DNA of 32,000 nt from Thermofilum adornatum (GCF_000446015.1 NC_022093.1:120001-152000); one strand, 5' to 3'. Positions 13,218 through 27,439 are shown, counted from the stretch's first letter. Numbers and translations are program-made. The notes: generated by a model from the letters alone, not told the origin.

Positions 13218-15764
13218 TTATCCTCTTTTGTTCTGCCATCTCAGCATGGAGACAGCATTCACTACGACAGTTATATCGCTGGCCATCATGGCCCCAGCAG
13301 CCAGCTCTGGCCTTAACATGACTCCTAGGGGTTTCCAGAGAATCCCAGCAGCTATTGGTACAAGGGTTAAATTGTAGGCGAAGGCCCACAATAGGTTCTC
13401 TAGTGCTTTTTTCCTCACCAACTCGCTCAACTTGAAGAGAGCTATGAGGGGCTCCAGGTTGCCTCCTGCGAGAACGGCGTCTCCGGCTTCCTTAGATATG
13501 TCTGCACCCCCACCCATGGCTATGCCAACGAAGGCCCTGCTCAAAGCGACAGCATCATTGATACCGTCACCGACAAATAATACTTTTTTGCCTGATGCTT
13601 GGAGTTTTTCAACAAGTTCACCCTTGTCTTCTGGCCTCATCTCTGCATATACCTGGTCTAGGGAAAGCTCCCTGGAAAGATTTTCGGCTACAACCTTGCT
13701 GTCTCCTGTTGCAAGGATGGTTGTCAAACCTTTTTTCTTCAGAAAAGAAACCACCCTTAATGCGTCTTCCCTTATCTCGTCTCGAACCAAAACAAGAGCA
13801 GAAACCTTTCCATTTAGAGCAACATAGAAGATGGTAGACCCCTGCGAAATCTCTTTTTCTGCTCTCTCGTTTACCTGACCCGGGACTTCAAGGTTAAACA
13901 TTTCAAGAAGTCTCTTCGAGCCAACAATCACTTCTGCACCGTTTATTTTGGCAAAAATTCCCAGTCCAGGAAAATGTTCGTAGTGTTCCGGCTCTAGCGA
14001 AACAACCTTCTTCTCTGAACAATACTCGATAACAGCAGAGGCCAAGGGATGCTCACTTCTATTTTCTGCTGAACAAAGGTACCTTAAGACCTCTTCACCT
14101 GCACTGTCAAGAAAAATTACTTCTTGGACTCTCGGCTTCCCCATGGTCAGGGTGCCTGTCTTGTCAAAAACAACAGTGTCTACCTGCAGAATCCTTTCGA
14201 AGACGTCTCCGCTCCTAACAACTATACCAATCCTAGTTGCATTTATTATAGCGATCGCTACTACCAGGGGCACTGCTATACCTAGGGGACACGGACAAGT
14301 AACCGCAAGCACTGCCGCAGCGAATAAGGCGGCTTCGCTGTAGCTAGCTCCTCCCAACGTCGCCCAGTACAAAAACGTCCCAATGCTAACCGCTATTATC
14401 GCCCATGTAAGATAGCCCACAACACGGTCGGCAATCCTCTGGAACTGCGGCTTCCTAAACTGTGCTTCCTTGACTGCTTCTATTATGTAGGCCAGACTCG
14501 TCTCTTTTCCCACCCTAGTCGCTCTAACTCTCAAGTAGCCAGAGACAAGAATTGTCCCCGACAGGACAATATCTCTTTTCTCTGCGCTCTTCAAAACAGG
14601 AGCCGGCTCGCCAGTAAATGTAGATTCATCAACATATCCCCATCCTTCTACAACAACACCGTCAACAAGGATGCGTTCTCCGGCTTTTACCTCTACTATT
14701 TCTCCTGGCTTTACCTGGTCAGATTCTACCTCTACGAGTTTCCCGTCGCGTATCACTCTCACCTTACCTTTTTGGGCAGAAGCCAGAGCATACAGGTAGT
14801 TGAATGCCCTTTTCCTGACCCTATTCTCGATATATGTACCCAGCGAGACAAAGCCCAAAACCCCAGCAGGTATTTCAAACATTCCCATGCCTTCATGACT
14901 AAGAAGCAACTGTATAATCCCTGTTATATATGCAACAAGAGAAGACAGAGTTACAAGGCTGTCCATGCTTGGGGATAAGCGTATAAGCGCTAACAGGCCC
15001 CTTACGAGTAAATCATAGTTTAGGAATATCACTGCCGTCGCAACGGCAAAGTAGATGATTGGCGGAAGCGGAAAAACAAGGTGAAAGGCTTCTAGCGAGT
15101 GCCAAGTAACCACTGTGAGGCCCAATCCAAATGAGGCCAGAGGTATCCAGAGTGGCTTTTCCCGTTTATCTTCGAGTTGACTCTCTTCTACTTCTCCAAC
15201 TTGGTATCCAAGGACCCTGACCAATTCTTTGATTTCTGCTGGGTTGGTAGTTAGAGGATTATAGGTTATCTTTGCGAGATTAGAGGCTGGCGAATAGTGG
15301 CAAGAAAATACTCCCTTAAGCCTTGATACTTTTTTCTCAAAGTTGTGTGCTTCTTCAGGTTCGAGTTCAACACTGAAGACAAGCGTTCCCTTTTCTAAGT
15401 CGTATCCAGCTTCCCGAATAGCCTTGTTTATGTCAACAAGAGATATCTTGTCCTGGTCATAGATGACAACGGCATCACCAGTTGTAACATCTATGTCTAT
15501 GGTGGCCCCAATCTTGTGCAGGGATTTTTGTATCGCTAAAACACAAGTCGGACAGTCTACACCTATAACTCTAATCTTTTCCCTTGTTTTTGTCAGTTTG
15601 TTCACAACTGGACCATGCTGTAAATAATATTCAGGGTTCTTTTCGAATGCTTTTTTGCAGTGTGGGCTACAGAAATAGTATATTTTTCCCTTGTAGACAG
15701 ATTTGTAAGGAGTTTTCTCAGATTCTACTTCCATTCCACAGACTGGATCTATTTGCTTTACCAT
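13218..15764 (-). CDS. copA: copper-translocating P1B-type ATPase with N-terminal YHS/TRASH-like and HMA-like domains
   Basis: 848 aa. Domains and motifs: DPVCGMEV…[19 protein letters not shown] (YHS/TRASH-like); [10 protein letters not shown] (HMA CxxC); TM motif VTCPCPLG (CPC); DKTGTLT; SEHPLA; GDGINDA; YN and MxxS TM motifs. Confidence 0.92.
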
Positions 15765-20173: not shown

Positions 20174-21583
20174 CTAATGGTGATGATGCTTTTTCCATTC
20201 TCCTGGTTCATGCAGGTGGAAGAACGCCCTCTCCACTACCTCTGAGAGGGCTGGGTGTATATGCATGCCGTTGTAGATTGGCTCAGCACTTCCATCGGGG
20301 GTATACATTAGGTTTACTATTTCCTGTATCAGGATGGATGCTTCTGGGCCTATTATGTGGGCTCCAAGGATTCTGAATGTTTCCCTGTCAAGTATTACCT
20401 TTACGAAATAATCAGAAACCATCATGGCCTCTCCCTTTGCCGTCTCCTCGTAGCCGGCTATCCCTACAAGGATATCGTACTTCTTCATTGCCTCTTCTTC
20501 CCTCAAGCCAACACTTGCAACTTCTGGCTCTGTAAAGATTGCGTGTGGCACCGCGTCGTATCTGGCTTTAACCTCTTCGCCCTTGAAGGCATTCCTGTAG
20601 ACAATTATGCTTTCGTAGTTGGCCTTGTGCTTATACATCTGTTTGCCAGTAGCGTCACCGAAAGCCCATATACCTTCTTTAGACGTCTTTAGGTATTCGT
20701 CCACTATTATCCACCCCTTCTCGTCTGTCTTTACACCGGTTTTCTCTGGCTTAGTGATGTCGCTGTTCGAGGCTCTACCCGAGGCAACTAGTATCGCGTC
20801 TGCCTCGAGCTCGACGTTTTCGCCTGTAAGCTTGTTTTCGGCTACCACGATTTGTCTGTCTCCATTCTTCCTGAACTCGACCACCTCGTGGCGGGTCTTT
20901 ATTTCCATGTACCTGGATAGATCCCTCTGGAGCAACTCCGAGACTTCGGGTTCCTCTTCTTTTAGTATTCTCTCTCCCCTCTGGAGTATTGTTACCTGGC
21001 TACCCATCATAGCTAGGAAAAAGCCAAGCTCTAGCCCAACGAATCCCCCGCCTATAACGACTGTTTTCCGTGGCAGTTTTCTCAGTTCCCGAAAGAAATT
21101 GTCGTTCGTGTAGTATTTTACCTCGTCTATTCCTGGCACTCTAGGAACTGCTGGCTTAGAACCTGTACACAGCAACACTATTTCGCCCTCGATTTCTCTG
21201 CCCCCCACATCTACAGTATAGTCTCCCACGAATGTGCCATTTGTCTGGTATAGGTCTATGAGTGGATGATGCTTCAGGGAATGCTCTATCTCTTTACTTT
21301 CCTTGTAGATCCTTTTCCAGACCCTTTCCATTGTCCAAGCAAAGTCTGGGGGAGAATAGCTCACATTTATGCCGAACTTGTCTGCTTCCCTTATCCTCCT
21401 AATGTTCCGGGCAACCTCTATCAGCATCTTGGAGGGTATGCATCCACGGGTTAGGCATATCCCGCCAACCATGTCGTTTTCGATGACTGCGTAGCGGTAG
21501 CTCTGACCCTCATTTATTAGCTCAGAAACAATGTTCATGGCCGAGCCTGTACCAAAAACGATGACGTCGTAGTGTTTAGTCAT
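20174..21583 (-). CDS. class I FAD-dependent pyridine nucleotide-disulfide oxidoreductase (dihydrolipoamide dehydrogenase / mycothione reductase-like)
   Basis: 469 aa. Motifs: YDVIVFGTGSA (FAD GxGxxG/A); redox-active GGICLTRGCIPSK (CxxxxC); VVIGGGFVGLE (NAD(P)H site); C-terminal HIHPALSE interface dyad. Ends in KKHHHH. Confidence 0.85.
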   Translation of the reverse strand: MTKHYDVIVFGTGSAMNIVSELINEGQSYRYAVIENDMVGGICLTRGCIPSKMLIEVARNIRRIREADKFGINVSYSPPDFAWTMERVWKRIYKESKEIEHSLKHHPLIDLYQTNGTFVGDYTVDVGGREIEGEIVLLCTGSKPAVPRVPGIDEVKYYTNDNFFRELRKLPRKTVVIGGGFVGLELGFFLAMMGSQVTILQRGERILKEEEPEVSELLQRDLSRYMEIKTRHEVVEFRKNGDRQIVVAENKLTGENVELEADAILVASGRASNSDITKPEKTGVKTDEKGWIIVDEYLKTSKEGIWAFGDATGKQMYKHKANYESIIVYRNAFKGEEVKARYDAVPHAIFTEPEVASVGLREEEAMKKYDILVGIAGYEETAKGEAMMVSDYFVKVILDRETFRILGAHIIGPEASILIQEIVNLMYTPDGSAEPIYNGMHIHPALSEVVERAFFHLHEPGEWKKHHHH

Positions 21584-21628
21584 ATATGTTTCTGCTTTCT
21601 TGTCAATATATTTATTTATTGCATTTCT

Positions 21629-22561
21629 ATGGATATATTAATGTCCGGCCTAAAGGAAAAGGTTTGGAGGAAACTTCCTCTAATAATAATCCTGACAGTA
21701 GTAATTCTGGGAGTTGTTCTGGCAGTGTTTTCCCAGAGACAACCATTCACTAGCCTACAGCCTTATGTTGCCCAGATAACAATAACGGGGACAATAGACT
21801 ACTCTTCTTCCTCGATTCTAGGAACAACGACAGGAGTAGAGGAGTACATTAGACTCATAAAACAAGCAGAGGAAGACCCCCTAGCCAAGGCTGTCATCAT
21901 AGTATTCGACTCCCCAGGCGGAACATTCACCGCGTCCGACGACCTTTACCAGGCCGTAAAGAGCCTGGCCTCAAAGAAACTTGTCGTGGCCTATGCTAAG
22001 GGCCTCATGGCTAGCGGCGCATACATGGCCGCACTCCCCGCAAAAGTTATCTTGGCTAGCCCAACTAGTGAAGTAGGATCAGTTGGCGTAATCATGACTG
22101 TTCTCAACGTTGAAAACCTTCTTGGAAAACTAGGTATAACCGTCTACACATTTAAGTCTGGAACACTCAAGGACATTGGGTCCCCTTACAGGAATATGAC
22201 AGAGCAAGAAATAAAGATAATGAACGACTTTGTAAACTATTATTTCGAAATCTTCAAGGAAAGAGTGATAATGAATAGAGGAAAAGTCTCTGACGAAGTC
22301 TTCACGGGTCAACCGTTTACTCCAGTAAAAGCCAAAGAGGCAGGTCTAATAGATGACGTATGTACATATGAAGAAGCAGTCAACCGGACAAAGAGTTTAG
22401 CGGGTTTGCCCGAAGATGCGCCAGTAATAGAGCTTAAGCCGAGAACACCATCGCTCCTTGATATCCTGTTTGGCGCTTCTCAAGGGAGGAGCTCAATTAC
22501 TATTCCAAGCATTCTTGTCTTGGCGATGTGGCCTCCACCAGTCGCAATCGTTTTACCTTAA
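21629..22561 (+). CDS. sppA: signal peptide peptidase SppA (S49 family, 36K type)
   Basis: Track ORF starts at 21572, which overlaps the divergent gene's start. I prefer ATG 21629 (MDILMSGLKEK…), followed by one TM helix. S49 motifs: VIIVFDSPGG, catalytic-Ser context GLMASGAYMAA, Lys context GTLKDIGSPY. Confidence 0.85.
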   Translation: MDILMSGLKEKVWRKLPLIIILTVVILGVVLAVFSQRQPFTSLQPYVAQITITGTIDYSSSSILGTTTGVEEYIRLIKQAEEDPLAKAVIIVFDSPGGTFTASDDLYQAVKSLASKKLVVAYAKGLMASGAYMAALPAKVILASPTSEVGSVGVIMTVLNVENLLGKLGITVYTFKSGTLKDIGSPYRNMTEQEIKIMNDFVNYYFEIFKERVIMNRGKVSDEVFTGQPFTPVKAKEAGLIDDVCTYEEAVNRTKSLAGLPEDAPVIELKPRTPSLLDILFGASQGRSSITIPSILVLAMWPPPVAIVLP

Positions 22562-22577
22562 AGAAGATTCGAATAGC

Positions 22578-23990
22578 TCAGGCGACTATTTTTTCTGCTC
22601 TAGCTAGGGTCCATAGAGATGCAGTGAAAAATGCAAGGGACAATGCCCCGATAATGGTATTCTGGTTTAGGACTGAGATGAAGAGGCTTAGGGTGCTCCA
22701 TAGCAACATGTAGAAGGGATCTTTAGGCTTCTTTTCCTGTGTTTCTTTCTTTCCCTTCGGTGTCACTTCGTAACTGAGAGGGAGGCCAAGTAACCCTTTC
22801 AGGCTGTTCCAGGCAAGGGTAGGTGTAAGCGTTGTTAGTATGGCTGTGAATCTTCCGAGGTTTGTTATGGTTTGTTTTAGGCTGTATTTTTTCATGAGTC
22901 TCTGATAGAGATAATAGTATATAGGAAATATGAGAATGAAAGGCGACGACATGTATAGGATTTCTTCCAAGAACATGCCAAAAGTTATACGTTGTTCCAG
23001 TGCCCCTGCTATGGGTAAAAGGAGAAATGAAATAGAGACGGGGATTGTGAGAAGAGGCAGAGACATATAGGCGAGCATTTCTAGCCTCCTCCAAAAAGAC
23101 AGCTTGTGGCTTTTAATGAGTTTTAAGGCGGATCTCCTCAAGACGTCACTCGTGCCATATGCCCATCTTTTTTGTTGCGTCTTGAACGCAGCAAGCGTCG
23201 AGGGGACAAGAATCCTCAGAGACAGTTCTCCAAGCAGATGTGTATCATAGCCGTTTAGGGCAAGCTTAACCCCCATCCATATATCGTCTTGAATTATGTT
23301 GTCTCCCCAGCCGCCCACATCTAAGACAACGTTTTTGTCATAAATTGTTCCAGAGCCTAGAGGAAAAACAAAAAGGCCCGCCTGGCTCCTCATTCTGTAG
23401 AGGAGATCCGAGCCAAAATCTGTGAAAAACTTTACCGCGTGTGCTAGACGCGTCCCTCTTGTAAAGTAACCTTCCCATGGTATTACACTTGCTCCCCCGT
23501 TTTGGAGCCCTGTACAAATTTTTGTGGCAATTTCTAGTGTTGGTTCAGCGTCGACGTCTAGTATCAAGAAATGAGTGGCAGTAACATTTTTTAGATAGTC
23601 ATCTAGTGCGCCAGTTCTCCCGCCTCTACGGTCTGGCCTGTGGAATATGGATATGGGGAGGTCGTATCCCAGGGCTTCAGCTAGATTTCTTACGTAGTCG
23701 CTTGAGTCGTCTGAAAGTATAGTTAGGCGTGTGAAACAGGGGCTTGTCAGGAGGACTGCTGAGTTACGTCTTGTTTTTTCGACAACTAGTTCTATTGGCT
23801 CAGAATAGATTGGTACAACAGCTTCTAATGTGCCCCTAGAAGCCCTATGAATGTTGTTGTTTGCTTTGTTTCTTCTTCTGTTTGCAATAGCTAAAATAAG
23901 GGTCTCATACAAGAGGAGTAAAAGTATTGGAAATACTACCAAGAGCATGGCTATTGTGCTTAGAAGTGGTATCGCTGTGTAGCTTTCCAT
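22578..23990 (-). CDS. membrane-embedded family-2 glycosyltransferase with processive-synthase motifs (D, DxD, ED-like, QxxRW)
   Basis: Track ORF extends to 24122, overlapping the upstream gene by 106 nt. ATG at 23990 (MESYTAIPLL…) gives a 26-nt gap instead. Motifs: VVPIYSEP, ILSDDS, LILDVDAEP, IIQDDIWMG, KTQQKRWAYG. One N-terminal TM helix and ~4-5 C-terminal TM helices. Confidence 0.85.
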   Translation of the reverse strand: MESYTAIPLLSTIAMLLVVFPILLLLLYETLILAIANRRRNKANNNIHRASRGTLEAVVPIYSEPIELVVEKTRRNSAVLLTSPCFTRLTILSDDSSDYVRNLAEALGYDLPISIFHRPDRRGGRTGALDDYLKNVTATHFLILDVDAEPTLEIATKICTGLQNGGASVIPWEGYFTRGTRLAHAVKFFTDFGSDLLYRMRSQAGLFVFPLGSGTIYDKNVVLDVGGWGDNIIQDDIWMGVKLALNGYDTHLLGELSLRILVPSTLAAFKTQQKRWAYGTSDVLRRSALKLIKSHKLSFWRRLEMLAYMSLPLLTIPVSISFLLLPIAGALEQRITFGMFLEEILYMSSPFILIFPIYYYLYQRLMKKYSLKQTITNLGRFTAILTTLTPTLAWNSLKGLLGLPLSYEVTPKGKKETQEKKPKDPFYMLLWSTLSLFISVLNQNTIIGALSLAFFTASLWTLARAEKIVA

Positions 23991-24016
23991 AGGCCATGTC
24001 ACCACATAATAAATGG

Positions 24017-24688
24017 TTAGTCCTCGCTGGATACTGGCAGGTCTCTGTCTCTGGACTCTGCTATTTCTTTGGAGCGGAGAGTTCTCAGCAGGAGATCTAT
24101 CTGTTCGCCGAAGAATGCCCACAGCGAAAAGACGCCTATAAGGAGGCCGATGCCTATAGCTATTCCAATCGCTAGTGCCAGCTTTATTTCGCTACTGAGT
24201 GCTGCAAGGTCGATGAGGAGCAGGGTTATGAGGAGAAGACTTAGCATTGTGAAGAATCTTTCAGTTTTCCTTTCTAGCCTCATAGATTTGACCAATGCGT
24301 CGATAATTACAAAGGTAAGCATTGATAATACCACTACGCTACCGACCCTGTATATGTAAGCTATTAGGTCCCGATATGCCTGCGTGTATTCTGGGACAAA
24401 TATTCGAACCACAATTGCTGTGCTAGTGGCTATTACGCCTGCGTCTGCCAAGAAGATTATAAGGGAGTTTACCGGTATTCTTGTTCCTTCGGGGACAGCT
24501 CTCTTTACATAGTCTTCCAGCCTGCTTGTACGGACAAGCCAGTTAATTGCCTTGTTGAGAAGCTTTACAAAGAGGAGCGTTACAAAAATTACAAGCGTGG
24601 CGAGACCTGCCTTGGGAAAGAGTGACAAGATGTCTTCAAGGAGCTGACGGAGAAGCATAGTGATCTCTGCGTCCGACATGTCAACCAC
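24017..24688 (-). CDS. hypothetical polytopic membrane protein (~5 TM, charged C-terminal tail)
   Basis: 223 aa, GTG start at 24688 (alternative ATG at 24679). The start abuts or overlaps the upstream stop TGA (24681-24683), indicating translational coupling. I recognise no family motif. Confidence 0.7.
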   Translation of the reverse strand: MVDMSDAEITMLLRQLLEDILSLFPKAGLATLVIFVTLLFVKLLNKAINWLVRTSRLEDYVKRAVPEGTRIPVNSLIIFLADAGVIATSTAIVVRIFVPEYTQAYRDLIAYIYRVGSVVVLSMLTFVIIDALVKSMRLERKTERFFTMLSLLLITLLLIDLAALSSEIKLALAIGIAIGIGLLIGVFSLWAFFGEQIDLLLRTLRSKEIAESRDRDLPVSSED

Positions 24689-26012
24689 CGATTATTAGGA
24701 ATGCTAGCTTATAAATTATATATAAGAGCAAAGCCAGTGTCATCAAGGTTACTGCTTCAAAGAATGTTTTGAGGAATTCTTTAGAGGCTTGAACCGTGAA
24801 TGTGAAACCTGTGAGGCTAATAGAGTAGATTAGTCTGCTGAACTCGTACGCCTTTCTTCCTGGAATTATAGCGGTTTCAGGTATAGCAAGTAAGACTATT
24901 ATGACAGCTAGGAACTTGATGATAGCTGACAAAATGAGCCCTGTAAATGGATCCTTGACAAATATGTATGCAACCATCGAGGCTATGAGCAATCCTGTAT
25001 AGTTGCCGGCAACAAGAAATGCGGATGCCTTTATTCTTCCCATGCGTGCATTAACCTCAGCGAAAATCTGCATTGCGAGTAAGTTTGCAGCCATAAAGGT
25101 TAGAGATGTAAAGAACGATATCCCTACATGGGCATACGGGTAGCTGATAAATGGTATTAGTCCCGTCAGCAAAGTATTTGCAACTAGGCCAACCATATAT
25201 GACTTGTAGCCCCTAAACAGGAATGAGCCAAGAGTGCCTCCAATGTTCCCCGTTACACTCAGGGCGAGAGCTATATAGATAGGGGCGCCTAAGCTCTTTA
25301 GAAAAGGAGTCCACGACAATCCCACTAAGTTGCTACCGGCCAGCATGAATGTGAGAACCAGAAAAGCCGAGTGTCCTCTTACAATTACTTCGACCGGCGT
25401 CTCCTGCTGTTTCTCTACTATTTGAGAGGGAAACTTTGGGACAAGTATGAAGGCGAGAGAGCTTCCCAGGCCAATAACAAATGCCGCAAAGTAGGATATA
25501 ATGTAGCTTTGAGGGGGATTATAGACGTAGGAAACGAAGGTCATAAAGAGGGATCCAAGCAAGGAAGCAACTGCTCCAGCTGCTGATCTCCAGACTGAGA
25601 CATTTATCACGTCTTGTATAGATGAGAAATATGAGTAGATTAGTGCTCCAATGAAAATGCTTACCACTGCTGAGATAAGGTTTCCAAGCATGTAGGTAAA
25701 GGATATCAGCTCTATGTTGCCCAAGAGGAAAGGCAAGAGGAACCATACAACTCTTTCAGTCACATGTGTAGTGAAGGCCAGGAATTTGAATTTCCTTGTA
25801 AGGCTGTCGGAATACCTGTACAATATCAATGATAGAATAGACCCGCTTAGGCCTGTGGGCAAGAGTATGAGTGCCATGTTTCCTAGGCTGTACCCGCTAT
25901 ACGAGATCATTGGGATAAAGAGACCCCTAGTTATTGAGACGTAGAATCCTCCTAGGAATGCTTCTACAACTAGGAGTACCTTAGCAATATTTTCTTCTGG
26001 CGAAGACGACAC
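24681..26012 (-). CDS. hypothetical ~12-TM membrane protein (weakly MFS-like)
   Basis: 443 aa, GTG start. A TATA-like element (26029-26045) lies ~20-30 nt upstream. Hydrophobic throughout. The weak loop motif YRYSDSLTRKFK resembles the MFS loop 2-3 motif. Confidence 0.72.
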   Translation of the reverse strand: MSSSPEENIAKVLLVVEAFLGGFYVSITRGLFIPMISYSGYSLGNMALILLPTGLSGSILSLILYRYSDSLTRKFKFLAFTTHVTERVVWFLLPFLLGNIELISFTYMLGNLISAVVSIFIGALIYSYFSSIQDVINVSVWRSAAGAVASLLGSLFMTFVSYVYNPPQSYIISYFAAFVIGLGSSLAFILVPKFPSQIVEKQQETPVEVIVRGHSAFLVLTFMLAGSNLVGLSWTPFLKSLGAPIYIALALSVTGNIGGTLGSFLFRGYKSYMVGLVANTLLTGLIPFISYPYAHVGISFFTSLTFMAANLLAMQIFAEVNARMGRIKASAFLVAGNYTGLLIASMVAYIFVKDPFTGLILSAIIKFLAVIIVLLAIPETAIIPGRKAYEFSRLIYSISLTGFTFTVQASKEFLKTFFEAVTLMTLALLLYIIYKLAFLIIGG

Positions 26013-26059
26013 GTTAACTCATGTTCATGAATATTTATTAAAAGTTTTTAGGTTAGGAG

Positions 26060-26941
26060 TTAGAGGTCTAGGTTCTCTTGCAAGATGTTTTTCAAAGCTT
26101 CGGAACCCATATGGTGCTTCAGCGAAACCAAAATTGCTCTGAGGAAAGACTCCCAGTTTCCAACATCTACCCAGTCTGCCTCAGACTCATAAGCTATAAA
26201 CTCTACGCCACTCTTGATCAAAAGCTGGATTGAATCTGTTATCTCGATTTCTCCCCGTGGACTTGGCTTCGTCTCTTCTATCGCTTTGAATATCTCGGGT
26301 GGAAAAATATACAAAGAGACATTTGCCAAGTTGGAGACAAATTCCTTTGGCTTCTCAACTATGCCTTTTACAAGGTAAACGAATTCCGCAACTTTATCCC
26401 CAACGATTACTCCGTATCTGCTTGGGTCTTTTACTTTTCTCACAGTTATGACTGGCTTTTTAGTCTGGCCATGCAAAGAGATAACTTTCTCCGTAACATT
26501 CTCTCCCACAAATATGTTGTCAGCAGCCGCGGCTAGGAAAAAATCGTCACCCACAAATCCCTTAGCCATGTATACTGCGTGCCCAGTTCCCCTAGGGATA
26601 GGCTGATTTACCCAGACGATAAATGACTTCTCTATTTTTTCATAGAAATCTTTTAACAGCTCTGCGTATTCATCTTTACCATTTCTTTCAAGGTATTCGA
26701 CAAAGTCCCAATCAGGAGTAAAGTGGTCTTCTATTGCACGTTTACCCCGTCCAACAACAAAGCAGAATTCACGTATCCCTGCATCATATAGCTGTTCAAA
26801 AGCGACCTGTATTACTGGTTTAAGATACATTTTGCCGTTGAACCCATAGAAAATTGGTAGCATCTCCTTCGGCATCTCTTTGCTGTAGGGGACAAGCCTT
26901 GTCCCAAGACCTGCGGCAAGCAATACTCCTTTAGAAATCAT
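26060..26941 (-). CDS. galU: UTP--glucose-1-phosphate uridylyltransferase (GalU-type sugar-1-phosphate nucleotidyltransferase)
   Basis: 293 aa. LLAAGLGTRLVPYSKEMPKEMLPI matches the GalU signature AGLGTR..P.TK..PKEMLP. Also has IEDHF and PRGTGHAV, colinear with E. coli GalU. Confidence 0.85.
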   Translation of the reverse strand: MISKGVLLAAGLGTRLVPYSKEMPKEMLPIFYGFNGKMYLKPVIQVAFEQLYDAGIREFCFVVGRGKRAIEDHFTPDWDFVEYLERNGKDEYAELLKDFYEKIEKSFIVWVNQPIPRGTGHAVYMAKGFVGDDFFLAAAADNIFVGENVTEKVISLHGQTKKPVITVRKVKDPSRYGVIVGDKVAEFVYLVKGIVEKPKEFVSNLANVSLYIFPPEIFKAIEETKPSPRGEIEITDSIQLLIKSGVEFIAYESEADWVDVGNWESFLRAILVSLKHHMGSEALKNILQENLDL

Positions 26942-27061
26942 ACATGCCTCTGCCTAGACTCCAAATATATATGTATAACGTGTAGATACGCTACCCCATT
27001 TTCTATATTTTGGCAAGGGCTAAATTTTTATACCATACCTTAACTAAGAGATTTGACAAAC

Positions 27062-27439
27062 ATGGCAAAAAAGTTTGGAGACCTGATATATTCTCCGGAA
27101 GTTGCGGCAGGCGAAGCAGTCTCAAAGGTTGAAACCCACACACCAAAGATCGAGGCTCCCGACGAGGTCAAAGCTGGGGAACCATTCTACATTAAGATAA
27201 AGGTTGGGCCACATCCAAACACACTACAACACTCGATTAGGTGGATAGAGGTATACTTTGAAGAGGAGGGTAGAGCATTCAACCCTATAATGCTTTCGAG
27301 GATACATTTAGAGCCCGAGCTCGTAGAGCCAGAAGTTACACTCAAGCTTGTCCTAAAGAAGAGCGGAGTAATTTATGCCCTAGAATACTGCAACCTTCAC
27401 GGTGTCTGGGAAGGCAGGAAAGCAATAACTGTAAAGTGA
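27062..27439 (+). CDS. sor: superoxide reductase (1Fe-SOR / neelaredoxin type)
   Basis: Track start is TTG at 27053. ATG at 27062 (MAKKFGDL…) sits ~30 nt after the TATA-like AAATTTTTATA (27022-27032). Motifs: ETHTP (in place of EKHVP), HPNTLQHSIRWIEVYF, YALEYCNLHGVWEG. Colinear with Pyrococcus SOR. Confidence 0.9.
   Translation: MAKKFGDLIYSPEVAAGEAVSKVETHTPKIEAPDEVKAGEPFYIKIKVGPHPNTLQHSIRWIEVYFEEEGRAFNPIMLSRIHLEPELVEPEVTLKLVLKKSGVIYALEYCNLHGVWEGRKAITVK

Follow-up and report, generated by a model that had tools for sequence, protein, structure and literature searches.

Wall-less mycoplasmas make capsular glucans with synthases of glycosyltransferase family 2 (GT2) that have 3-6 transmembrane (TM) helices plus three interface helices, with only GalU and Pgm upstream (PMC11658790). 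In plants, the motif QQ(H/F)RW is the signature of CslA and CslC (PMC5670714), and in archaea the existence of short PgaC/BcsA-like GT2 genes was already pointed out in a 2022 review (PMC10086821). Little is known about the way in which surface glycans or head groups of glycolipids are made in hyperthermophilic archaea, and our literature search found no characterised archaeal enzyme of this type, no crenarchaeal synthase-type GT2 with an assigned product, no exopolysaccharide (EPS) of Thermofilum and no link between cyanobacterial MgdA and CslA. Here we analyse such a GT2 gene, encoded in a stretch of 32,000 nucleotides (nt) of Thermofilum adornatum (GCF_000446015.1 NC_022093.1:120001-152000; hereafter the window, to which all coordinates given without a locus name refer). 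The gene (22578-23990, minus strand) encodes a protein of 470 amino acids (aa) when read from its ATG, and it is preceded on the same strand by genes for a 223-aa and a 443-aa membrane protein and for a GalU-like nucleotidylyltransferase. A first-pass annotation had proposed that the GT2 and the two membrane proteins, taken to be novel partner subunits, form a synthase-dependent EPS machine. We conclude that the GT2 belongs, as an uncharacterised member, to a class of enzymes that is already known, and does not represent a new secretion system. The explanation that we find best, and hold tentatively, is that it acts as a stand-alone beta-glycan synthase resembling BcsA and CslA, fed by the GalU-like enzyme and possibly primed by a lipid.

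All five motifs that had been listed for the GT2 are present in the translation (VVPIYSEP, ILSDDS, LILDVDAEP, IIQDDIW and KTQQKRWAYG), and their key residues are invariant or nearly so among homologues. In an alignment of 24 homologues E64-P65, D94, D145xD147, D236, Q272, Q273, W276 and T410-P411-K412 were invariant, and D95, G123-G124-R125 and D235 nearly so; D94/D95, D145xD147, D235/D236 and Q272-x-x-R275-W276 were likewise (nearly) invariant in sets of 24-52 homologues. Searches against profile families, which the first-pass annotation had put forward as a check, yielded a clear match to PF13632 (Glyco_trans_2_3, 72 bits), with PF13641 and PF00535 also above threshold. All NCBIfam matches were far below their thresholds, those to PgaC/IcaA, CelA and NodC leading: 48.9 bits for the PgaC/IcaA model TIGR03937 (cut-off 422.3), 37.9 bits for the BcsA/CelA model TIGR03030 (cut-off 699.1) and 25.6 bits for NF008558 (cut-off 992). 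The GT2 is not BcsA proper. Nevertheless, a profile made from the 24 homologues matched the BcsA proteins of E. coli and Rhodobacter with E-values of 1.4e-22 to 3e-22, and BcsA is the best match of the GT2 among solved structures in both sequence and fold. The alignment pairs profile positions 23-456 with BcsA 245-676, so that it starts where the N-terminal TM helix ends and extends through the last TM helix, TM5-8 included, and in the gating loop the family sequence YEVTPKG is paired with FNVTAKG of BcsA. Dolichol-phosphate mannose synthase (DPMS) matched the family profile in its N-terminal half only, and the solved ceramide glucosyltransferase matched it with an E-value of 0.0024 over positions 10-270 only, the match stopping at QxxRW.

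The predicted structure points in the same direction. A single N-terminal TM helix, a cytosolic GT-A core and 4-5 C-terminal TM helices had been assigned to the protein at first; the former two features are retained in the AlphaFold2 (AF2) model (pLDDT 93.3, pTM 0.91), and the C-terminal region is predicted to consist of four TM helices and two interface helices. Model helices span residues 9-38, 266-293, 299-331, 337-365, 371-401, 424-441 and 445-464, in agreement with the hydropathy of the sequence. The N-terminal TM helix (~9-38) is followed by the cytosolic GT-A domain, an interface helix with QQKRW (272-276), TM helices 299-331 and 337-365, an interface helix (371-401), the gating loop YEVTPK (407-412) and TM helices 424-441 and 445-464, and the polypeptide ends 6 residues past the last of these. 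Behind the single N-terminal TM helix, the modelled order is that of BcsA: interface helix (IF) 2, TM5, TM6, IF3, gating loop, TM7 and TM8. When the model was compared with the PDB by Foldseek, BcsA came first (TMq 0.62-0.66), followed by hyaluronan synthases (HAS), plant CesA, cyclic beta-1,2-glucan synthase and chitin synthase (CHS; Chs1). PilZ and BcsB domains were absent from the GT2 and from the neighbours scanned. Since sequence, motifs, topology and predicted fold all agree, we place the GT2, as modelled, in the class of membrane-embedded, inverting synthases (BcsA/CesA/HAS/CHS), and the BcsA/HAS-type layout suggested for it in the first-pass annotation is borne out. The enzyme class is settled, and the explanations discussed below differ in the processivity and the acceptor that they assume.

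The wider family to which the GT2 belongs is large. A scan of 1.84 billion representatives with the profile of the family yielded 1,436 at E<1e-30, and among the best 150 of these 1,436 nearly all were full-length matches of 440-520 aa. QxxRW was found in 167 of the 175 relatives checked, almost always as QQxRW, and [FYW]x[VIRL]TxK was found 100-190 residues after it in 161 of them; FxRTPK and YxVTPK occur alongside QQxRW. The DxD motif of the family is DVD, DAD or DSD. Each of the 24 family members had PgaC/IcaA as its highest-ranking NCBIfam match (best 5e-33), and the cluster names found in the wider family mention only a 'cellulose synthase/poly-beta-1,6-N-acetylglucosamine synthase-like glycosyltransferase', comparable to the JGI annotation of the window GT2 ('cellulose synthase/poly-beta-1,6-N-acetylglucosamine synthase-like'). 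Several distant relatives (P0152 and P0193, and also P0155, P0162, P0181 and P0211) carry fused domains, namely an N-terminal GH113 beta-mannanase, a second GT2, an extracellular leucine-rich repeat domain or a CarboxypepD_reg-like Ig domain. Judged by domain content, such fusions tie that distant branch to polysaccharide metabolism; the relatives with GH113 are only 18-19% identical to the window GT2. A fusion of synthase and hydrolase would be the one-protein counterpart of BcsA plus BcsZ.

To establish the genomic context, GT2 loci were taken from 12 contig look-ups, from a set of genomes in which each species was represented once (28 loci) and from metagenomic data (58 loci), and their flanks were searched with the proteins of the window. 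This gave ~80 loci outside the Thermofilaceae, of which 41 were left after dereplication at 80% identity. The combination of a GalU-like gene, the gene for the 443-aa protein (a transporter of the major facilitator superfamily (MFS), see below) and the gene for the small membrane protein with the GT2 gene was found only in Thermofilaceae-type loci (Thermofilum, Infirmifilum and close metagenome-assembled genomes (MAGs); GT2 at least 41% identical). Neither the pair of membrane protein genes nor a GalU gene was found near the GT2 gene in any of the ~80 loci (41 dereplicated) from other lineages, which comprised Desulfurococcales MAGs, Ignisphaera, Thermocladium and other Thermoproteota. The composition of the operon is specific to one archaeal family. 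Co-occurrence of the trio across archaea had been proposed as a check on the EPS machine, and a lack of joint conservation as one of the outcomes that would refute it; we found that the trio is not conserved outside the Thermofilaceae, where the pair and the GT2 occur apart, and one system with two novel subunits is not supported. The link with slime formation in Desulfurococcaceae, also suggested at that stage, is unfounded, as the DNA comes from Thermofilum (Thermofilales, Thermofilaceae).

Within the Thermofilaceae the flanking genes (encoding desulfoferrodoxin, an S49 peptidase, a pyridine-nucleotide disulfide oxidoreductase and another MFS protein) are just as syntenic as the four genes themselves. 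Because these unrelated genes are equally syntenic, the operon linkage has little independent weight, and to judge from the gene orders it is largely inherited. We observed a block of at least seven genes whose order and orientation are kept between Thermofilum and Infirmifilum (extending in the window over 20174-22561 and 27053-27439; loci L001, L009 and L014), in the order desulfoferrodoxin, NTP-transferase, MFS, small TM protein, GT2, S49 peptidase, pyridine-nucleotide disulfide oxidoreductase.

The 443-aa protein (24681-26012, minus strand, with a GTG start at 26012) can hardly be recognised from its sequence: the match to MFS_1 had 15.9 bits (cut-off 33.4), no sequence match was found in the PDB, and hhalign gave no match to the window's own MFS protein. 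Its AF2 model (pLDDT 84) has the MFS fold, with 12 TM helices and an extra C-terminal helix (385-442), and the top 50 Foldseek matches in the PDB were all MFS proteins (e.g. G6PT1, FLVCR1, NorA and VMAT2), with probability 1.00 and TMq 0.6-0.68. The model is unambiguously that of a divergent MFS-fold transporter. A novel partner fold, as had been supposed for this protein, is thereby ruled out.

The 223-aa protein (24017-24688, minus strand; 220 aa if the ATG at 24679 is the start) has 4-5 TM helices and matches PF05552, the N-terminal TM helix of MscS, with 14.6 bits (cut-off 22). We rejected the possibility that it is an MscS channel: the weak match is confined to the N-terminal helix, PF00924 was not matched, a protein of 223 aa is too short to include the beta-domain, and no match was found in the PDB at E<=10. 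The 34 homologues that were found include proteins of Korarchaeum. Genes of this type always adjoin an MFS gene, and wherever the pair was seen the two genes overlap or abut. The pair, consisting of an MFS protein of 430-445 aa and a small 4-5-TM protein of 194-237 aa with a weak PF05552 match, is present in Thermofilaceae, Korarchaeum and uncultured archaea, in unrelated neighbourhoods. Besides the copy in the window (24017-26012), it was found with neither a GT2 gene nor a GalU gene nearby in five loci of four lineages, namely on two contigs of Korarchaeum cryptofilum (L011/L012 4689-6621) and in L013 (6001-7976), L102 (6001-7917) and L103/L104 (6001-8033). Because the pair occurs in several lineages without GT2 or GalU, the gene neighbourhoods indicate that it is an autonomous transporter module that in the Thermofilaceae happens to share the operon of the GT2, and not a set of dedicated synthase subunits. 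We know of no function assigned to a two-component MFS of this kind. A gene for a copper-type P-type ATPase with YHS and HMA domains lies in the window at 13218-15764, ~9 kb from the locus, and a YHS-domain P-type ATPase is encoded ~1 kb upstream of the pair in Korarchaeum (L011/L012 1715-3757); the likeness is probably coincidental.

The fourth gene (26060-26941, minus strand) encodes a 293-aa sugar-1-phosphate nucleotidylyltransferase (PF00483 NTP_transferase, 124.7 bits) that is closest to GalU. Its best NCBIfam match, over the full length, was TIGR01099 (galU) with 196.3 bits, compared to 153 bits for the archaeal GlmU-type and RmlA models. Because the galU score is below the cut-off of that model (326.8), we only infer a GalU-type specificity for nucleotide and sugar. 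Every Thermofilaceae-type locus whose sequence extends far enough has at this place an orthologue that is 59-99% identical, and the co-oriented GalU-like enzyme directly upstream, as described in the first-pass annotation, holds throughout this family.

In the explanation that we tentatively favour, the GT2 would use a UDP-hexose, probably UDP-glucose from the GalU-like enzyme, whose gene is co-oriented and probably co-transcribed, and would extend, by repeated addition of beta-linked sugars, a chain that the tryptophan of QQxRW keeps in place. The product would be threaded to the cell surface via the small TM channel of the GT2 itself. The first acceptor may be a membrane lipid, and accessory subunits would not be needed, as in the stand-alone GT2 capsule synthases of mycoplasmas. 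A polymer synthase is favoured by the BcsA-type membrane module with its gating loop, by the CslA-type QQxRW, by the GH113 fusions, by the GalU-like gene upstream and by the mycoplasma precedent. Several points weigh against it. A polymeric product is a prediction for every member of the family, and motifs and fold do not separate processive synthases from the lipid glycosyltransferases of the same clan that perform a single addition. The GT2 has only five TM helices and lacks equivalents of TM1-3 of BcsA, so that a closed channel is putative. The GH113 fusions come from relatives that are remote from the window GT2, and we found no gene for the modification or degradation of polysaccharides near archaeal family members. 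Moreover, the neighbours of the GT2 gene in other lineages, described below (a radical SAM protein, a glycerate-kinase paralogue and Tes with a lipid reductase), point toward membrane lipids and not toward EPS. Finally, the sharing of an operon with the MFS pair in the Thermofilaceae could still be functional.

Outside the Thermofilaceae the commonest neighbour within 4 kb of the GT2 gene was a radical SAM protein of ~520 aa, present in 12 of the 41 dereplicated loci (for instance L002 3552-5123, L007 3405-5012, L017 7546-9114, L027 3251-4858 and L043 3019-4578). Its radical SAM core starts near residue 220, behind an N-terminal domain of 200 aa; it matches Pfam Radical_SAM and, weakly, the B12-binding domain, its best NCBIfam matches are B12-binding radical SAM families (sub-threshold), and the PDB contains one uncharacterised match. 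Across lineages the proteins are 58-72% identical, and 33-36% for the L027 type. The gene is found in three arrangements. In the first it is divergently oriented and lies behind a helix-turn-helix gene and another, small gene; in the second it is the immediate upstream neighbour, in the same direction (L027, L064 and L066); and in the third it is upstream as well, separated from the GT2 gene by a glycerate-2-kinase paralogue (L043, L070, L083, L085, L088 and L101). Because it recurs in three gene arrangements, its position suggests a functional link with the GT2. B12-type radical SAM proteins of this size include ring synthases and methylases of glycerol dialkyl glycerol tetraethers (GDGT; PMC13459092; bioRxiv 10.1101/2025.10.20.683597), and 'Grs/Cgm-like' would be a name derived from class and size alone. 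The glycerate-2-kinase paralogue (MOFRL/DUF4147; ~270 bits against NCBIfam cut-offs of 550-670) was found directly upstream of, and co-directional with, the GT2 gene in 15 loci (L043 4629-5996, and L065, L070, L071, L073, L075, L083-L085, L088, L092, L094, L097, L100 and L101), and it directly precedes the GT2 gene in nine of the 41 dereplicated loci. In six loci, all from one uncultured lineage, genes for the tetraether lipid synthase Tes (NF045702, 673 bits, above cut-off; PDB 7tol, 5.7e-135) and a digeranylgeranylglycerophospholipid reductase lie side by side at 3-8 kb from the GT2 gene (L043 10292-13419, and L075, L084, L092, L094 and L097). In L043 a resolvase and a TnpB fragment have been inserted between Tes/reductase and the GT2 gene.

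These neighbourhoods bear on a caveat of the first-pass annotation, that some GT2 proteins with QxxRW are lipid glycosyltransferases. The enzyme would then use UDP-glucose to attach a single hexose or a few of them to archaeol or to lipids of the GDGT type entering laterally from the membrane, and in the Thermofilaceae the adjacent MFS pair would flip or export the glycolipid, in analogy to the GtaB/YpfP/LtaA pathway of S. aureus. The lipid genes found near the homologues have strengthened this caveat into a live alternative, which we consider possible although on balance somewhat unlikely. Besides the radical SAM protein with its three arrangements and the nearby Tes and reductase genes, it is in line with the matches of family members to Glyco_transf_21 (PF13506; 21 of 24, best 1e-10) and to HpnI (six of 24) and with the position of the MFS gene next to GT2 and GalU in the window. 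The window GT2 itself, however, does not match PF13506 at E<=0.01, and the match of the ceramide glucosyltransferase is marginal and lies in the N-terminal half, whereas BcsA aligns through TM5-8 and the gating loop. A kinship of the radical SAM neighbour with Grs, Cgm or another lipid enzyme is conjectural, and the proximity of Tes and the reductase may be synteny specific to one lineage. The MFS pair occurs without GT2 in five loci of four lineages, and 41 GT2 lineages are without the pair. Finally, the family was found in only some Thermoproteota (in a pattern-based and incomplete scan), although hexosyl lipids are general there.

A more specific proposal, which we regard as speculative and unlikely, would cover the family as a whole. 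Its members would synthesise a hexose head group or a short lipid-anchored beta-glycan on the outer face of the ether/tetraether membranes of Thermoproteota, using the gating loop and a small channel to cross a monolayer that cannot flip; their partners would be B12-type radical SAM enzymes in most lineages, and a GalU-type enzyme with an MFS/small-subunit flippase in the Thermofilaceae. If true, this would be of considerable interest, as it would identify a head-group or lipoglycan synthase of crenarchaeal membranes.

We consider it improbable that the GT2 serves a pathway for a short oligosaccharide or solute, in which a beta-gluco-oligosaccharide or glucoside facing the cytoplasm (comparable to the products of NodC or to osmoregulated periplasmic glucans) would be exported by the MFS protein, for instance in osmoadaptation. 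NodC and MdoH/OpgH are indeed among the weak NCBIfam matches of family members, but all of these are far below the cut-offs. The operon also encodes an MFS exporter and a protein that weakly matches an MscS helix, although that combination is confined to one archaeal family. There is a crenarchaeal precedent in the msc-gt-tpsp operon of T. tenax, which combines a UDP-glucose-using enzyme, a glycosyltransferase and a small protein similar to the TM part of MscS, but the glycosyltransferase in question is an unrelated GT4 (PMC3634074). Moreover, the gating loop and the TM5-8 module would be superfluous for a purely cytoplasmic product. The three-subunit EPS machine, with the 443-aa and 223-aa proteins as obligatory partners of the GT2 like BcsB or PgaD, is very improbable: in every Thermofilaceae locus the three genes lie close together and point the same way, the GT2 gene is preceded by a Shine-Dalgarno (SD)-like sequence, and extra helices could in principle complete a channel that lacks TM1-3 of BcsA, but the 443-aa protein has a complete MFS fold, normally that of a self-contained transporter, the pair exists without GT2 in Korarchaeum cryptofilum and the other loci mentioned, none of the ~80 GT2 loci outside the Thermofilaceae has the pair, and the linkage within that family counts for little next to equally syntenic flanks. 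Tight packing of an operon in one archaeal family with syntenic neighbourhoods is not evidence for a multi-subunit machine.

The layout of the locus itself is as had been described: the four minus-strand genes, the gap of 26 nt, the spacer of 47 nt and the TATA-like box could all be read directly in the sequence. The stop codon of the 223-aa gene (24019-24017) is separated by the 26-nt gap from the start of the GT2 gene, and the genes for the 443-aa and 223-aa proteins overlap by 8 nt. The 47-nt spacer between the nucleotidylyltransferase gene and the 443-aa gene contains the TATA-like sequence TTTAATAAATA, ~25 nt upstream of the GTG at 26012, as part of the A+T-rich element ACTTTTAATAAATATT (26029-26045, minus strand). 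This element is a possible internal promoter, from which a near-leaderless transcript of the 443-aa, 223-aa and GT2 genes might start. An SD-like GGTGA (24003-23999, minus strand) is present 8 nt upstream of the ATG of the GT2 gene and would fit an internal gene of an operon. A TATA-like box at leaderless distance from the 443-aa gene together with an SD-led GT2 gene agrees with what is usual in archaea, where the first gene of an operon is leaderless and the internal ones are preceded by an SD sequence. A longer reading of the GT2 gene, a 514-aa open reading frame (ORF) starting with GTG, was rejected as an over-extension into the upstream gene, since it is at the ATG at 23990 that the aligned homologues begin. 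In T. pendens the four genes are separated by 14, 2 and 1 nt, the spacer of 14 nt being the one that corresponds to that with the TATA-like element, and in Infirmifilum lucidum by 46, 1 and 11 nt. Because the gene array is this tight in both species, co-transcription of the four genes is likely. The GC content of the locus (0.42-0.46) is the same as that of its surroundings. The domain scan of the neighbouring ORFs found no Bcs, Pga, Wzx/Wzy or Alg accessory components, as the first-pass annotation had noted, and among the scanned neighbours of the GT2 gene there was no deacetylase or PgaD-like gene.

When compared with known systems, a stand-alone, BcsA/CslA-like synthase remains the description that suits the GT2 best. 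With BcsA it shares a GT-A core that contains D, DxD and, on a finger helix, the catalytic Asp, as well as the QxxRW that opens an interface helix. Behind this, both have a pair of TM helices, another interface helix, the gating loop with FxVTxK and then a further pair of TM helices. It differs in length (470 aa, compared to 730-890 aa for BcsA) and in its number of TM helices (five, with one N-terminal, compared to eight, with four N-terminal), and where BcsA has TED, HAKAGN and QRxRW the GT2 has QDD, GGRTGAL and QQxRW. It also has no BcsB partner and no C-terminal PilZ domain, and therefore no control by cyclic di-GMP.

The QQxRW motif, the compact size and the low number of TM helices are shared with the plant CslA and CslC enzymes, which are synthases of mannan, glucomannan and the xyloglucan backbone (PMC5670714). 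These have DMD where the GT2 family has DVD, DAD or DSD, and the likeness is one of motif and architecture. The mycoplasma capsule synthases also work in a host with a single membrane, have DD, DxD, ED, QxxRW and FxVTxK, and lack PilZ (PMC11658790); their products have been proven experimentally, and the likeness to the GT2 concerns mechanism and pathway layout alone.

PgaC and IcaA, the synthases of poly-beta-1,6-GlcNAc, need a small membrane partner, PgaD or IcaD. Like the GT2 they are compact (~410-440 aa), and they are the top NCBIfam match of the family. The GT2 differs from them in its gating loop, FxVTxK of the cellulose-synthase type, in having no deacetylase of the PgaB type, and in having a small neighbour that occurs independently of it. 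The ceramide glucosyltransferase of family GT21 and HpnI are built like it, from a TM helix at the N-terminus, a GT-A core in which D, D, D and (Q/R)xxRW are found, and several TM helices at the C-terminus, although the similarity of the ceramide glucosyltransferase is marginal and does not reach the C-terminal membrane module. In the window, the joint presence of a GalU-type enzyme, a glycosyltransferase and an MFS protein resembles the glycolipid pathway of S. aureus, which consists of GtaB, YpfP and the flippase LtaA; YpfP, however, is a GT28 and the window enzyme a GT2.

Taken together, the GT2 is a candidate for the synthesis of an archaeal beta-glycan or a lipid-linked sugar. It is a small and probably thermostable relative of cellulose synthase, modelled with very high confidence. 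Compared to BcsA it has kept the core, the gating loop and the last four TM helices and is without the regulatory and N-terminal parts, and as such it may offer a convenient minimal model for the coupling of synthesis to passage through the membrane.

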